Shown here piece after piece: positions 1 through 11,140 of a stretch of 53,171 bases of DNA. The stretch comes from a virus (lineage: Duplodnaviria > Heunggongvirae > Uroviricota > Caudoviricetes). The DNA lies in the IMG/VR virus record IMGVR_UViG_2721755711_000003, positions 1-53,171 of that record; one strand, 5' to 3'. The notes under the pieces were generated by a model. That model worked only from the letters and a program-made list of their open reading frames with translations, ran no database searches and was not told the DNA's origin. Numbering within the stretch: the first letter of the stretch is position 1; the number at the start of each line of letters is the position of its first letter. The translations under genes and the position numbers were made by a program.

Positions 1-1236
1 CTACGATAACCGCGCATTCAACATGGCTACCTGTTCGTCGTTCATGTCATCAATCCACATACCGTAAATTTCATACACCATCTGCGCAGTTTCATGCCCC
101 ATCTGGCTGGCTATAAATGCCGGGTTCGCTCCTGCCGTCAACAGCCAGCAGGCAAAAGTATGCCGCGTATGGTACGGATTACGGCGGCGAATACCAGCAC
201 GTTTTACTGCTGCATTCCACCTTGCCCCCAAACTGCTTACCGAGTAATAAGGTTTCTGTTTTCCGTTACACATCCTGGGCATGAAAACAAAATGCAGTTT
301 TTGCTTTTCGGTTCTGCCGTACTCCCTATGATAAAAGGTGATTTCGCTTTTGCGATGATGTCCGGTCAGTTTGTATTGCTCCTTCAGTGCTTCAAGAGCA
401 GGCTGCAGTAGTGTTACTGTCCGGATCCCGGCATTTGTTTTTGGGGGACCGAACATATCAAGTATCGTCAGGTTTCTTCTGACATTCACAATTCCCTTCT
501 CGAGATCCACATCCTCCCACGCCAGAGCTGCCAGTTCCCCGTGACGAAGTCCTGAGTAAACGGCAAATTTCCACAAGTTCTGGCTCTGTCCTTTTTCACT
601 TTCCATTAATGCATTGAATTCTGTTTTAGATAACGGGTCAGGCTTTATTCTGTTTCGCTGTAATTTTTTTACTCCTTCAAATGGTTTGGTTGATATAAAT
701 CCCGACTGATACGCAAAACGTAACAACGAACAGAGTAGGGCGATATAGTTATCAACTGTGCGTACGGTTCTTCCTTTTTTGTTGGATCTTGGATTATCCA
801 GGTAAAGCGTTTCTCCATGCAGCAGTTCATTCCGGTAGTTTAAGATATCGCTATAACGAATATGCGATATCGGGGTACTCTCACAAATTATTATCTTGAG
901 TGTTTTTAATTGTGATTTCGTTTTCTTCATTGTGTTTGTTGTTAACTCTGTCTCTTTAATTTTTGTCCAGATATCACAAAGCTCCCCGAACGTTTTTATG
1001 ACCCTAGTTGTCACCATTTTTGCTCCAGTGCTGGACTGGGGGAAACGTCTTAAATACTCAAATTCACCGGAATTGATTTCATGAACTATCAACGCTCTTA
1101 AATTCCCGGCTTTTTTAATGTTACTGTTAGTAACCTCCCAGCCTTTCAATGTTTCCCGGCATCGTTTTCCTCGAAACATGAACCAGATGCGAATGTATTT
1201 ACCTCGAATCTCGACACCTGTTGGTAATTTAGACAT
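1..1236 (-). CDS. int: phage integrase (tyrosine recombinase family)
   Basis: 411-aa minus-strand ORF ending at the window edge; sequence character and position next to an excisionase-like ORF match Rac/lambdoid integrases. attL would lie outside the window. Confidence 0.8.
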   Translation of the reverse strand: MSKLPTGVEIRGKYIRIWFMFRGKRCRETLKGWEVTNSNIKKAGNLRALIVHEINSGEFEYLRRFPQSSTGAKMVTTRVIKTFGELCDIWTKIKETELTTNTMKKTKSQLKTLKIIICESTPISHIRYSDILNYRNELLHGETLYLDNPRSNKKGRTVRTVDNYIALLCSLLRFAYQSGFISTKPFEGVKKLQRNRIKPDPLSKTEFNALMESEKGQSQNLWKFAVYSGLRHGELAALAWEDVDLEKGIVNVRRNLTILDMFGPPKTNAGIRTVTLLQPALEALKEQYKLTGHHRKSEITFYHREYGRTEKQKLHFVFMPRMCNGKQKPYYSVSSLGARWNAAVKRAGIRRRNPYHTRHTFACWLLTAGANPAFIASQMGHETAQMVYEIYGMWIDDMNDEQVAMLNARLS

Positions 1237-8601: not shown

Positions 8602-8877
8602 ATGAACTTAAGAGACTATTTAAAAGAGAAACATATCACCCAGCTACAGTTTGGGAAGCTAACGGGTTTATCTCAGGTGCACGTAAGTCGAGTGCTGGGG
8701 GGCTATGAAAGATTCAGCCCTGAAAAAGCATTACGTGTTGCTGAAGTAACGAATTTCGAGGTTACACCTCATGAACTCCGGCCTGATATCTACCCGAATC
8801 CAACCGACGGTTTACCTGTTGGATGTAAGGCTAACACACAAAATACACAGGAGTTGATTCATGAAAATCAGGCATGA
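8602..8877 (+). CDS. ydaS: Cro-like HTH regulator, YdaS-like
   Basis: ATG at 8602 with GAAGG upstream (the track ORF begins at a TTG); HTH-like segment ITQLQFGKLTGLSQVHVSRVL. Confidence 0.55.
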   Translation: MNLRDYLKEKHITQLQFGKLTGLSQVHVSRVLGGYERFSPEKALRVAEVTNFEVTPHELRPDIYPNPTDGLPVGCKANTQNTQELIHENQA

Positions 8878-9283
8878 GCACATCGAATCAGTGCTGTTAG
8901 CCCTGGCAGCCGAAAAAGGGCAGGCGTGGGTCGCTAACGCAATTACTGAAGAATATCTGCGCCAGGGGGGAGGTGAATTGTCTCTGACACCAGGCAAGGA
9001 CTGGAACAATCAGCAGAACATCTATCGCCGTTGGTTAAAAGGTGAAACGGAAGCGCAAAGGGAAAAAATTCAGAAGCTGATCCCAGCAATTCTGGCAATC
9101 CTTCCGCGGGAGCTGCGTCACCGACTCTGCATCTTCGATACCCTGGAACGCCGTGCATTACTGGCGGCGCAGGAAGCGTTGAGTACGGCAATTGATGCGC
9201 ATGATGACGCAGTCCAGGCCGTTTACCGTAAAGCGCATTTCGGCGGTGGTGGAGCGTCCGACGATTCTGTTGTAGTGCATTGA
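8861..9283 (+). CDS. ydaT: YdaT-like protein (proposed toxin partner of YdaS)
   Basis: 140-aa ORF overlapping the ydaS 3' end by 17 nt, GGAG before the ATG; matches the Rac ydaT position. Confidence 0.5.
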   Translation: MKIRHEHIESVLLALAAEKGQAWVANAITEEYLRQGGGELSLTPGKDWNNQQNIYRRWLKGETEAQREKIQKLIPAILAILPRELRHRLCIFDTLERRALLAAQEALSTAIDAHDDAVQAVYRKAHFGGGGASDDSVVVH

Positions 9284-9302
9284 TTGAATAGGGTATCCAA
9301 TA

Positions 9303-9716
9303 ATGAAAATCAAACCGTACATAAATGCCGGAAATCTTACTCCCGGCGAACTACGAGACTGGATCCTGAAACTTGCAAAAAATGCAGAAATTGCGGGTTG
9401 GGGTACAGAAACTTCGGTTCGGAAGCTTCAGAGCGCAGAACTTAGCCTGCGCTCAGTTATGGACGATTTATCCCCAAGAATTAATTTTCTGGGGTCAGAG
9501 CAAATAATTCGTTCGGAAGGTCACTCCAGCGAAGTTGCGGAAGTTCTGAATACTCTGAGGGTAACTTTTGCTGCCGTTCGCGATATTCAACGAACCATTC
9601 TCTCATTGATTTCTCAGCTTCAAGAAATTGATAGTCGCATTCCTGACGGGGGTCATAGAGAGCGTCTTCCAGAATGTGAAGAGCAAGGACAGGGGAAACA
9701 GATAAGGGATCAGTAA
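9303..9716 (+). CDS. hypothetical protein (uncertain; overlaps a convergent ORF)
   Basis: 137-aa ORF, weak ribosome-binding site; overlaps the minus-strand ORF 9481-9936 by 236 nt, so at most one of the two is likely fully real. Confidence 0.3.
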   Translation: MKIKPYINAGNLTPGELRDWILKLAKNAEIAGWGTETSVRKLQSAELSLRSVMDDLSPRINFLGSEQIIRSEGHSSEVAEVLNTLRVTFAAVRDIQRTILSLISQLQEIDSRIPDGGHRERLPECEEQGQGKQIRDQ

Positions 9717-9936
9717 TACGTTTTTCACTTGCCTGGTATAGCAATCTCGCCAGCGAATCATAGCTACTGGGGCTCAGGAGAGAATCCCGTGAGTGATTTG
9801 TAAGAATCAGGTGGAAGCGGGTGAGAACTATAGCCCTGCATGTTACCAGGTTAACCATGTCGTGGTCGTGCTGGTTAATTTTGTACACAGTGCGCATGTG
9901 ATTTTTAATTTTTTGGCAAACAGCCATTAAAGACAT
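9481..9936 (-). CDS. hypothetical protein, opposite in orientation to the early operon
   Basis: 151-aa ORF with AAGGAGG 6 nt upstream of its ATG (reverse complement of 9937-9950). Confidence 0.4.
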   Translation of the reverse strand: MSLMAVCQKIKNHMRTVYKINQHDHDMVNLVTCRAIVLTRFHLILTNHSRDSLLSPSSYDSLARLLYQASEKRITDPLSVSPVLALHILEDALYDPRQECDYQFLEAEKSMREWFVEYRERQQKLPSEYSELPQLRWSDLPNELFALTPEN

Positions 9937-10015
9937 GTCGAACCTCCTTTGGTTCTGTTGATTGGGGAATCACAGATTATATCCGGAGGAAGGTTCGACA
10001 CCAGATGAGGCAATT

Positions 10016-11140
10016 ATGGTTAAGGCTAAAAACATGCCAAATCCCATGCCAAAAACTAAGGCAAACAATGAGCCTTATCGCAAGGTAAAAATAACGATAT
10101 GGGATGATCCCAAATTTAGGGCGTTATCTCCTCTGCCTCCAAGTGGACAGAGTTTGTTTATTTATCTGCTGACCAGTCCATTTACCGGGATTATTCCTGG
10201 GTTGTTTAAAGCCGGGCGGGCAGCAATGGCTGAAGAGTTGGGGTGGGATATCGAAGCCTTTGACTTAGCCTTAGGCGAAGCCATGAATCTTGGCATGGTG
10301 AAAGCAGATATCAAAGCCAGAGTTTTTTGGCTCCCGAATGCTGCGAAACACAATCCGCCAAACTCGATAAATGTCATTAAATCCTGGGCAAAGGCATTCG
10401 CTTTAATTCCTGATTGCCCTCTCAAATGGGAGGCCAGGGAATCGCTGAGAGCCGCGTCCTACGGGGTTTCTGAGGCTTTGGGGATGGCATTCGATAAGGC
10501 AATCCCTTTGCCTGAGGATAAGCCTAAGGATAAGGCTAACGCTTTGTCATGCGGTATCCAGATAACAGATAACAGATATATAAACCCCACACATAACGCG
10601 CGCGTGCGCGAGGGTGCTCCGGCCAGTGAGGCAAATGGCGTGCCGTTGCAGACAGCGGAACCTGATTACCTGGAAGGCCTGAGCGAACCCATCGGGAAAT
10701 TTCCGATGACCGATGGCTGGCATCCGTCGCCGGATTTTCGACGACGGGCTGCGCTGTGGGGCGTGGATCTTCCTGAGCCGGAATTTACACCAGCTGAACT
10801 TGCCGCCTTCCGGGACTACTGGGCAGCGGAGGGCAAAGTGTTCACGCAGGTTCAGTGGGAGCAGAAATTCGCCCGTCACGTAAATCACGTCAGGGCGCAG
10901 GTTAAACCAGTCAGCAAGGGGGTGAGCCATGCAGCCGCACCAGGTGGCGCCGCATCACGGGCAGTTCAGGAAATTCGGGCAGCACGTGAGCAGTGGGAAC
11001 GTGAAAACGGATTTATCAGCGACGGAAACGGCGTGGAAGCTGTGGGAACTCATGGGGGAGGTTTATTCGAACCGCTGGACCCAGAAGAACGGGGCCGCAC
11101 CTTCGAAGCTCTGGATTGCACAGATTGGCGCGATGACTGA
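10016..11140 (+). CDS. replication initiator, lambda O-like
   Basis: Sits directly upstream of the P-like gene and contains iteron-like repeats in its middle, as lambda ori does within O. Start chosen at ATG 10016 (GAGG 5 nt upstream). The 3' end overlaps the P-like gene by 211 nt, so the true C-terminus is uncertain. Confidence 0.45.
   Translation: MVKAKNMPNPMPKTKANNEPYRKVKITIWDDPKFRALSPLPPSGQSLFIYLLTSPFTGIIPGLFKAGRAAMAEELGWDIEAFDLALGEAMNLGMVKADIKARVFWLPNAAKHNPPNSINVIKSWAKAFALIPDCPLKWEARESLRAASYGVSEALGMAFDKAIPLPEDKPKDKANALSCGIQITDNRYINPTHNARVREGAPASEANGVPLQTAEPDYLEGLSEPIGKFPMTDGWHPSPDFRRRAALWGVDLPEPEFTPAELAAFRDYWAAEGKVFTQVQWEQKFARHVNHVRAQVKPVSKGVSHAAAPGGAASRAVQEIRAAREQWERENGFISDGNGVEAVGTHGGGLFEPLDPEERGRTFEALDCTDWRDD
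10490..10600. repeat. iteron-like direct repeats plus AT-rich tract (candidate replication origin)
   Basis: GATAAGGC, GGATAAGCC, GGATAAGGC, then AGATAACAGATAACAGATATATAAA, followed by a GC-rich CGCGCGCGTGCGCG block, all inside the O-like ORF. Confidence 0.4.

Follow-up and report, generated by a model that had tools for sequence, protein, structure and literature searches.

The junction between the immunity and replication genes in the phage genome analyzed here raises the question of whether two long open reading frames (ORFs) that overlap on opposite strands can both be protein-coding genes and, if so, how two such genes would be expressed and transmitted together. Long antisense overlaps in prokaryotes are widely doubted, and the few that have been accepted, mostly on the basis of expression data, are for the most part young, poorly conserved ORFs that in most of the published cases lie inside an older gene. 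The window (the entire stretch of DNA that was analyzed, 53,171 nucleotides in length) corresponds to positions 1 to 53,171 of the IMG/VR record IMGVR_UViG_2721755711_000003, from a virus of the class Caudoviricetes. A first-pass annotation of this window had pointed to a plus-strand ORF of 137 amino acids (aa) and a minus-strand ORF of 151 aa that overlap by 236 nt, and had treated the two as alternatives. The ORF list bears out both ORFs and the extent of the overlap (9481-9716, on opposite strands), and the AAGGAGG ribosome-binding site proposed for the minus ORF is indeed present at 9949-9943. What does not stand is the choice between the two, given that, as detailed below, both appear to be genes that share about 160 nt of dual-coding sequence. 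The features of the two genes are:

9303..9716, plus strand: the plus gene, 137 aa with an ATG start (ORF list), belonging to PHROG 37051, where no function is assigned
9481..9936, minus strand: the minus gene, 151 aa with an ATG start at 9936-9934 (ORF list), representing a predicted all-alpha orphan family
9943..9949, minus strand: the Shine-Dalgarno (SD) sequence AAGGAGG of the minus gene, 6 nt upstream of the ATG, read from the sequence

The surroundings of the pair are those of an immunity/replication junction, as originally proposed. The upstream neighbor (8861-9283) matches the Pfam family YdaT_toxin (6.7e-12), and YdaT is the functional counterpart of lambda CII (PMC9986795); a DnaT DNA-binding domain is recognized in the downstream ORF (5e-18), which is followed by a lambda-P-type protein. 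The plus gene is presumably part of the early-right operon because its start codon lies only 20 nt past the ydaT stop. Judging from the comparison of related loci, the plus and minus genes appear to comprise a single, co-inherited two-gene cassette of approximately 635 bp located between the cII-like ydaT and the replication genes, with the 3' ends of the two genes interpenetrating in a tail-to-tail arrangement. Among the 80 viral loci that carry the conserved leader described below, matches to the HMMs of the plus and minus families identify exactly the same 25 loci, that is, the two components co-occur in 25 of 25, and a single intact partner is seen in L007 (minus gene) and in L047 (plus gene).

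Existing annotation tends to conceal one or the other member of the pair. In E. coli, the RefSeq/PGAP annotation includes the plus ORF only (WP_040092190.1), gene callers outside E. coli mostly report the minus gene alone, and both ORFs are annotated in one GenBank phage record, such that both families exist as called proteins, in different genomes. Because the pipelines each keep one ORF (RefSeq the plus ORF in E. coli, the others the minus ORF), each family looks smaller than it actually is, and the case illustrates a practical failure of annotation. A tblastn search of the phage collection returned one near-identical record and no others. Among E. coli strains, positions 9200-10000 are matched with 100% identity in F2_407_2_2 and OkiPb01716 and with 98.8% identity in M8.

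Homology searches with both translations, as advocated in the first-pass annotation, nevertheless yielded divergent homologs of each family. As a lone protein query, the plus ORF retrieves only relatives with at least 86% identity, a result that, taken by itself, would suggest a shadow ORF. In the DNA of divergent loci, the antisense plus frame is also open and its non-overlapped N-terminus is conserved (KPYINAGNLTPGELRDWIL, QPIINAADLSPKDLRVWLS, KPYIHAGNLGPKEFRTWII, KPVINAGSMGPDELEVWLL), and a plus-family profile built from these divergent translations detects 24 database proteins, down to about 40% identity, including members from Klebsiella and Salmonella at 40-50%. The plus protein also matches phrog_37051 in PHROGs (3.8e-92), a family of unknown function. 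For the minus protein, the protein search retrieves full-length, 151-aa homologs from Salmonella, Serratia and metagenomes, free of indels down to 49% identity, and an exhaustive profile search among 1.84 billion representatives recovers 23 clusters, all of approximately 150-160 aa, in which the most conserved motif is the C-terminal LPELRWSDLPNELF. The proposition that the plus gene alone is real, as the PGAP annotation of that single ORF in E. coli would have it, and that the minus ORF is an artefact, is barely tenable and appears already refuted by comparison: apart from the indel-free homologs and the 23 clusters, the 73 non-overlapped minus codons, the SD and the ATG are conserved, the minus frame would seldom be open given the plus protein alone (0.008-0.056 per lineage in the simulations below), plus third positions are suppressed in the core of the overlap, and, far from the conservation of only the plus frame with stop codons in the minus frame of related phages that the first-pass annotation had envisaged as the opposite outcome, no minus-frame stop codons were seen in otherwise intact relatives.

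Cassettes were gathered from contigs that encode homologs as well as from viral, genome and metagenome collections, resulting in a sample of about eight deep lineages (from Escherichia, Salmonella, Klebsiella and Serratia, with proteins approximately 40-58% identical) along with shallow variants. In every deep lineage, both frames are open, each with its own ATG and SD. The ATG, the SD and the N-terminal motif KPxINAGxL of the plus gene are conserved in all deep lineages, the SD being strong in several of these (AAAGGAGG, ACAGGAGG), and the SD of the minus gene is almost invariant across the alignment denoted A4 (10 sequences). Most lineages share an overlap length of 236 nt; elsewhere it is 239, 233, 212 or 158 nt, and the shortest natural overlap, 158 nt, is found in L038. 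Neither ORF seems to be the shadow of the other, and we consider it very likely that both are genuine protein-coding genes.

The two frames are in the phase pos1:pos1, pos2:pos3, pos3:pos2, so that any third-position change that is synonymous in one gene falls on a second position of the other, and the shared ~160 nt use this, the most constraining phase. Within the overlap, two segments can be distinguished:

9481..9640, both strands: the probable dual-coding core, ~160 nt, minus codons 99-151 opposite plus codons 60-112
9641..9716, plus strand: the apparently unconstrained C-terminal tail of the plus gene, 76 nt, facing constrained minus codons 74-98

To describe the constraint on each frame, divergence was expressed as the mean pairwise value among the deep lineages for each codon position (pos1/pos2/pos3). 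Outside the overlap, both genes display the codon-position pattern of coding sequence, with divergence of.40/.28/.51 in the minus-only part (codons 1-73) and.50/.39/.62 in the plus-only part. In the overlap opposite the plus tail, the minus frame (codons 75-98) diverges at.23/.19/.64 and the plus frame at.30/.63/.24, with the value of.63 at plus second positions; in this stretch, the minus gene apparently evolves like a normal gene that overlaps no other, and the final ~25 codons of the plus ORF appear to be unconstrained. The core (9481-9640) is constrained at all positions, at.24/.22/.29 in the minus frame (codons 99-150) and.23/.28/.24 in the plus frame. Purifying selection on both frames is seen in 9481-9640, whereas in 9641-9716 the minus frame alone is constrained.

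Synonymous changes follow the same pattern. Among pairs of identical residues, the fraction encoded by different codons in the minus gene is.25 in the core vs.50 in the minus-only part and.61 in the tail overlap (p = 1e-6), and in the plus gene.19 in the core vs.62 in the plus-only part (p = 4e-10; Mann-Whitney test in both cases), so that the suppression of synonymous changes in both genes is confined to the core; given that the lineages are few and related, these p-values, as well as the simulation probabilities below, are optimistic. Recent recombination was considered as a cause of the low variation in the core and was rejected, because first and second codon positions in the core are no more conserved than those in the adjacent tail overlap.

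The chance of an open frame was estimated by simulations in which one protein was held fixed and its synonymous codons were resampled. With the plus protein fixed, the minus frame is open with a probability of 0.008-0.056 per lineage; with the minus protein fixed, the plus frame is open over the core with a probability of 0.12-0.35 per lineage, the product over 7 lineages being ~4e-5, a value that overstates the significance if the lineages are not independent. Furthermore, the identity of the plus frame in the core is.578, against a conservative null of.445-.50, and the maximum in 300 simulations was.538. By these comparisons, the overlap appears to exceed the chance expectation, and the core is likely to be truly dual-coding, with ~160 nt apparently encoding essential parts of both proteins.

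The structural models of the two proteins can be set against these boundaries. The AlphaFold2 model of the plus protein, built from a 21-sequence alignment, consists of three helices (residues 14-31, 35-64 and 72-112) and has a mean pLDDT of 74, with 84-95 over residues 40-110 and less than 50 for residues 116-137; the tail past residue 112 is predicted to be disordered. The confident part of the model stops at residue 112, which is also the end of the plus-frame constraint and the position of the plus ORF stop in L038, and the plus tail is absent or shorter in L038 and L005. The plus protein is thus modeled as a ~112-residue three-helix, coiled-coil-like domain with a tail that is probably dispensable and disordered. 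The AlphaFold2 model of the minus protein is all-helical and weak (pLDDT 61), consistent with a 151-residue helical orphan.

Together with the plus paralogs that persist next to no intact minus gene (see below), these observations bear on the possibility that only the minus gene is real and the plus ORF is a shadow ORF, open by chance owing to the codon composition of the minus gene. Although the chance of an open core is fairly high in each lineage (0.12-0.35), the last ~25 plus codons seem to be free of constraint and most callers outside E. coli report the minus gene alone, a shadow ORF would hardly account for the conservation, as protein, of the 59 non-overlapped plus codons with their ATG and SD, for the restriction of minus-gene synonymous suppression to the stretch opposite the plus core, for the confident model up to residue 112 or for the divergent plus-family proteins in the databases. 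We regard this possibility as highly improbable and largely refuted already.

Several loci retain one intact partner only; these natural 'knock-outs' exist for either gene and seem to provide controls for both directions, the frame of the absent partner having decayed. In L046, a tandem plus paralog (P0035) lacks an intact minus gene; the plus sequence is kept, and the antisense strand carries a decayed minus remnant (..RHEWW..DFPVLQRSALLSELSGLMSEN) that has lost both its stop codon and the invariant W, D, P, N and F residues. Downstream in L046, there is another, divergent plus/minus pair with a 194-nt overlap. In L047, a lone plus paralog is present, and the minus gene is deleted to its first codons. 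In L007, from Trabulsiella, the minus gene is intact, the N-terminal domain of the plus protein is replaced, and the hydrophobic positions of the plus core are decayed (QQTILS -> QQTSQS).

This decay is pertinent to another alternative, namely, that both genes are real but the constraint on the core reflects a nucleic-acid element, such as an RNA structure, an antisense-pairing region or a recombination site, with one of the C-terminal regions being a passenger. The pair does adjoin an element that is conserved and structured, there is a hairpin immediately beyond the core, and the C-terminal third of the minus protein is modeled with low confidence; however, on the loss of a partner it is precisely that partner's conserved residues that decay, the conservation of first and second positions in both frames equals that of the clearly coding parts, with no indels over ~50% protein divergence, the plus core corresponds to helices 2 and 3 with pLDDT of 84-95, and no part of the minus family is more conserved than its C-terminal motif. 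Antisense pairing alone imposes no sequence constraint because both strands change together. We consider an element of this kind an improbable explanation of the core.

Long antiparallel overlapping genes in bacteria are considered rare, and few have been accepted (PMC9927249, PMC7103648, PMC8850804), examples being pop/ompA, laoB and nog1 in EHEC and two pairs in Pseudomonas aeruginosa (PMC7103648, PMC5810103, PMC9927249, PMC8850804). The pair described here resembles these in that the proteins are encoded on opposite strands, one of the two is annotated by pipelines, and purifying selection serves as evidence. Unlike the bacterial antiparallel pairs, it consists of two independent, similarly old genes, arranged tail-to-tail and both endowed with conserved non-overlapped parts. 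Furthermore, the evidence is of the opposite type: whereas the published pairs are known mainly from expression, this pair is known from sequences, and the case for it is comparative (about eight lineages, ~50% identity), resting on two orphan families with conserved domains of their own and on selection acting on both frames across several enterobacterial genera.

The question of how the two genes would be expressed turns attention to the sequences that flank the minus gene:

9937..10007, minus strand: a conserved leader/inverted-repeat element of ~70 nt, directly upstream of the minus ATG, with a variable inner hairpin
10013..10040, minus strand: a candidate sigma-70 promoter of the minus gene, TTGGCA-16-CATAAT, 10/12 matches
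9431..9454, no strand assigned: a G+C-rich hairpin, GAGCGCAG-N8-CTGCGCTC, within the plus gene, 27-50 nt past the minus stop

In the predicted RNA fold of the leader (-27.3 kcal/mol, z = -4.4), the stretch CGAACCUUCC pairs with the SD and the AUG start codon of the minus gene; the 5' arm is CGAACCTTCC. The consensus helix is present in all 10 sequences of A4, the mean column identity of the leader in this alignment is 80% where the proteins are ~50% identical, and similarity between lineages breaks off abruptly 5' of TGGTG, the 5' edge of the leader. A promoter of the minus gene had been anticipated at 9937-10000 on the minus strand, but the only consensus-like match lies further upstream, at 10040-10013, and is not conserved elsewhere: TTGGCA-16-CATAAT is specific to this replication module, and no upstream promoter conserved across lineages was found. 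The predicted transcription start of this candidate (~10006) coincides with the start of the conserved leader, and a weak conserved promoter candidate, nTGGTG-17..19-TAnnCT, is present inside the leader itself.

At the other end of the minus gene, the hairpin at 9431..9454 may act as a weak terminator of the minus transcript or form a stem at its 3' end. It is present in the window group, L005, L006 and L003, is absent or weak in L031, L038, L040 and L033, and lacks a good U-tract; a search across lineages for a conserved intrinsic terminator of the minus gene produced none that is convincing, and Rfam gave no match around the locus. A potential YdaT operator, TTGATT-GGGG-AATCAC at 9958-9973, was rejected, its spacing being 4 nt, in contrast to the published spacing of 6 nt (PMC9986795), and the sequence not being conserved in other lineages.

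Taken as a whole, the locus is probably best explained as a dual-coding, co-inherited cassette that combines antagonistic expression with partnership between the two proteins. Rightward early transcription would reach the replication genes only by crossing the entire minus gene, and the plus and minus mRNAs would be complementary over at least 236 nt; from such crossing transcription and complementarity, mutually antagonistic expression is to be expected, by way of transcriptional interference and the formation of double-stranded RNA. In the lysogen, where the early-right promoter is repressed, the minus gene would be expressed, and its translation would be further gated by the pairing of the leader with the SD and AUG; during lytic growth, the plus gene would be expressed and the minus gene silent. 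For such an antisense switch between the lysogenic and lytic states, we consider the chances to be about even.

A leftward transcription unit in a comparable place is well known in phage lambda, where oop, a 77-nt non-coding RNA with an intrinsic terminator, is transcribed between cII and the replication genes, convergently with the early-right operon. The minus gene likewise constitutes a leftward unit between a cII-type gene and replication genes, that is, in an analogous position. Unlike oop, it is a gene for a 151-aa protein and overlaps its partner rather than ydaT, and no sequence similarity to oop, Rfam match or convincing terminator was found.

The strict pairing of the two families suggests a partnership, and the plus protein may therefore act on the minus protein, modulating or neutralizing it, one possibility being self-immunity to a host-benefit or defense factor that is expressed in the lysogen. 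The first-pass annotation had compared the minus ORF, which runs against the early operon, to lysogen-expressed exclusion genes. The part of this claim that concerns its position holds up well, in that the minus ORF is a conserved, real gene of lower G+C content than its flanks in a variable slot; the exclusion role itself found no backing, the searches of PADLOC, Pfam, NCBIfam, PDB sequences and folds being empty or uninformative. In particular, neither protein has a meaningful match in Pfam, NCBIfam or PADLOC (the sole NCBIfam match scores 10.7 bits against a cut-off of 434.6 bits), none of the 10 minus-family clusters that were checked contains a Pfam domain, the minus protein lacks a PDB sequence match, and PDB sequence profiles retrieve only a designed helical filament (8e-4). 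Foldseek comparison of the plus model with PDB and BFVD returned only generic coiled coils, all with E > 0.07, and that of the minus model, a weak one, returned nothing. Across these Pfam, PADLOC, NCBIfam, PDB sequence and fold searches, no toxin, antitoxin, exclusion or defense family or fold was recognized for either protein, and we consider a role in defense or exclusion possible but doubtful.

The same searches are relevant to the rival that survives best, a toxin-antitoxin or abortive infection module, in which the minus gene would encode a leader-controlled toxin and the plus gene, via its protein or its antisense transcript, would supply the antidote. The strict co-occurrence of the two families and the location of the cassette in a prophage accessory slot are compatible with such a module, and the convergent, complementary transcripts with a sequestered SD recall type I toxin mRNAs; yet neither protein shows similarity to a toxin, an antitoxin or a PADLOC model, the minus protein is not small and hydrophobic as type I toxins are, and in L007 the minus gene is intact next to a disrupted plus gene. 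The loci with one intact partner, L007 and L047, argue against an obligate toxin-antidote dependence, and we judge this alternative unlikely, short of the dual-coding cassette with antagonistic expression and partner proteins that we favor.

Under the favored reading, the minus gene fits the profile of an accessory or moron-type gene, because it appears to be a conserved gene of low G+C content that runs against the early-right operon in a slot that in relatives is vacant or occupied by other genes. Prophage morons include lysogen-expressed exclusion and defense genes such as SieB, RexAB and BstA, the latter with cognate self-immunity (PMC8585504). The minus gene shares with these its accessory character, its location in a variable lambdoid slot against the lytic operon, and its deviant G+C content, and a self-immunity of the BstA type would explain an obligate partner, a likeness of logic only. 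Unlike SieB, RexAB and BstA, to which it has no homology, the minus gene has a 3' dual-coding overlap with its partner, and its promoter and terminator are candidates.

The slot itself is variable across phages. The cassette follows a cro-type gene or ydaT, is joined on its downstream side to at least four different replication modules, and in one case is located in a P2-like prophage, downstream of cox. The G+C content of the cassette segments is.43-.49, compared with.53 for ydaT and.53-.57 for the replication genes. In E. coli RMDEC465 (L048), the site is empty, the leader directly following the ydaT stop with no leftward gene; in E. coli PapRG-04-4 (L049), the same leader precedes an unrelated leftward gene of 83 aa that, together with a rightward gene of 98 aa, forms a convergent, non-overlapping arrangement between ydaT and ydaU. 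In the Rac prophage of E. coli K-12, ydaT and ydaU are probably almost adjacent; the slot would be absent, and K-12 Rac is therefore unusable as an expression reference.

A pattern search with the 3' half of the leader identified 89 viral contigs, of which 80 loci were analyzed. The ORFs behind the leader fall into 11 groups separable by BLASTP, including at least seven unrelated full-length families; the remaining groups comprise the minus family itself, a truncated version of the minus gene and a short ORF of 56 aa. Other leader-linked cargo includes a gene of 97-99 aa with a partner of 92-117 aa and a gene of 152-156 aa. Given the presence of the leader before unrelated genes and at the empty site, the leader appears to be a backbone element, with the gene pair as its cargo.

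A more far-reaching, and tentative, generalization is that the slot between cro/cII and the replication genes of enterobacterial temperate phages is an undescribed hotspot for convergent modules, in which leftward, lysogen-expressed cargo with a shared ~70-nt hairpin leader is antisense-interlocked, often by dual coding, with a rightward early off-switch or self-immunity gene, the overlap serving as a device that makes lysogenic and lytic expression exclusive and the genes inseparable in mosaic recombination. Our search of the literature for a hotspot or an overlapping pair at this position returned nothing specific, and neither the pair nor the leader or the slot turned up in the searchable literature. 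If the combination of leader and convergent pair is general, it would offer a new place to seek prophage functions in host benefit or defense, as well as a simple RNA-level switch between lysogenic and lytic expression.

Conserved elements next to diverse cargo are known from T4-type phages, in which PeSL (promoter-early stem-loop) cassettes comprise a stem-loop element that borders diverse non-essential ORFs and marks points of cargo exchange (PMC2839356). The likeness is conceptual only, a conserved stem-loop element combined with diverse cargo. Unlike PeSL, the leader occurs in another phage group, has a different sequence, contains within itself the start codon and SD of its cargo, and is present in one copy per locus, and its promoter or recombination activity is putative.

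Because the leader is also present without a leftward gene, its role may instead lie in the rightward mRNA or in recombination; on the plus strand, the SD of the replication gene is located ~10 nt past the end of the leader hairpin. In the 10 sequences of A4, no two-sided changes were detected in the helix, and a wider collection of leaders, in which one arm was fixed at gathering, contains one-sided changes only, which point to both strands. At the empty site of E. coli RMDEC465, both arms of the helix differ from those in the window (GCCGAAC...GTTCGGC vs GTCGAAC...GTTCGAC).

The approximately 70-nt block that precedes the leftward gene of the cassette, hereinafter the leader, is conserved as an inverted repeat and is present at the following positions:

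Window 9937-10007, minus strand: leader, upstream of the ATG of the minus-strand gene
L048 (E. coli RMDEC465, empty site) 1585-1652: leader copy
L049 (E. coli PapRG-04-4, with a different convergent gene pair) 2146-2216: leader copy

The inverted repeat base-pairs with the Shine-Dalgarno sequence and the AUG of the leftward gene. The element is common to several unrelated leftward genes (89 viral contigs) and is found in the empty site as well, immediately 3' of the ydaT stop codon. It may function as a leader, a promoter, a processing site of the rightward mRNA or a recombination junction, and may act on either strand. The apical loop of the leader holds a palindrome, TTGATT-GGGG-AATCAC (window 9958-9973), whose half-sites, here 4 nt apart, resemble those of the YdaT operator, published as TTGATT-N6-AATCAA (PMC9986795); this palindrome is not kept in other lineages, so the operator-like appearance is probably coincidental.

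The leader also bears on the adjacent gene for a DnaT-domain replication protein (window 9962-11140), for which the annotated starts disagree:

TTG 9962: mechanical ORF call
ATG 10016: GenBank phage record, with GAGG 5 nt upstream
10226: PGAP

The ORF that begins at TTG 9962 reads through the conserved leader and thereby gains a spurious-looking peptide, MGNHRLYPEEGS.PDEA; in L049, the same leader-encoded peptide is joined to ydaU.

Convergent partner ORFs, with overlaps of 86 to 323 nt, also accompany other families of cargo, that is, leftward genes behind the leader:

L050, L055, L069: cargo of 97-99 aa
L058, L063: cargo of 152-156 aa
L116, L087: further leader-linked loci with convergent partner ORFs

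The partner of the 97-99-aa cargo has a conserved non-overlapped N-terminus, K-I/V-S/T-I-S/K-Y-N/D-G..I.I.PI (three lineages), and the phase of this overlap differs from that of the plus/minus pair in the window. The slot may thus be one where extended antisense overlap is commonplace.

The cassette itself is subject to duplication and decay, as shown by locus L046 (4001-5097), where the plus-strand family is duplicated in tandem and one partner has been lost: the strand antisense to the first copy (120 aa) holds a decayed remnant of the minus-protein C-terminus, and behind it comes a second, very divergent plus/minus pair (126 and 157 aa) with an overlap of 194 nt. Separately, P0004, a 151-aa minus protein from E. 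coli, contains a short internal frame-shifted stretch (residues ~127-139), after which the frame is restored, and reads VFRTSATSLRVIF instead of EYSELPQLRWSDL. The stretch falls within the dual-coding core, and the plus protein must change too; either decay of this gene copy or an error in sequencing may account for it.

One further structure lies just beyond the stop codon of the minus-strand gene:

Window 9431-9454: perfect 8-bp G+C-rich hairpin, GAGCGCAG-N8-CTGCGCTC

The hairpin falls within the codons for the plus protein's conserved SAE.SLR motif and is present in four of the eight deep lineages; it might stabilise the 3' end of the leftward transcript or act as its weak terminator.

Positions 9200-10000 of the window are 99.6% identical to PP818812.1 7655-8455, 'Actinobacillus phage vB_Apl-pPE4', which has a Rac-like gene order as in the E. 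coli prophage region; this looks like a doubtful assignment of Actinobacillus as the host, a recent phage transfer or a contaminant.
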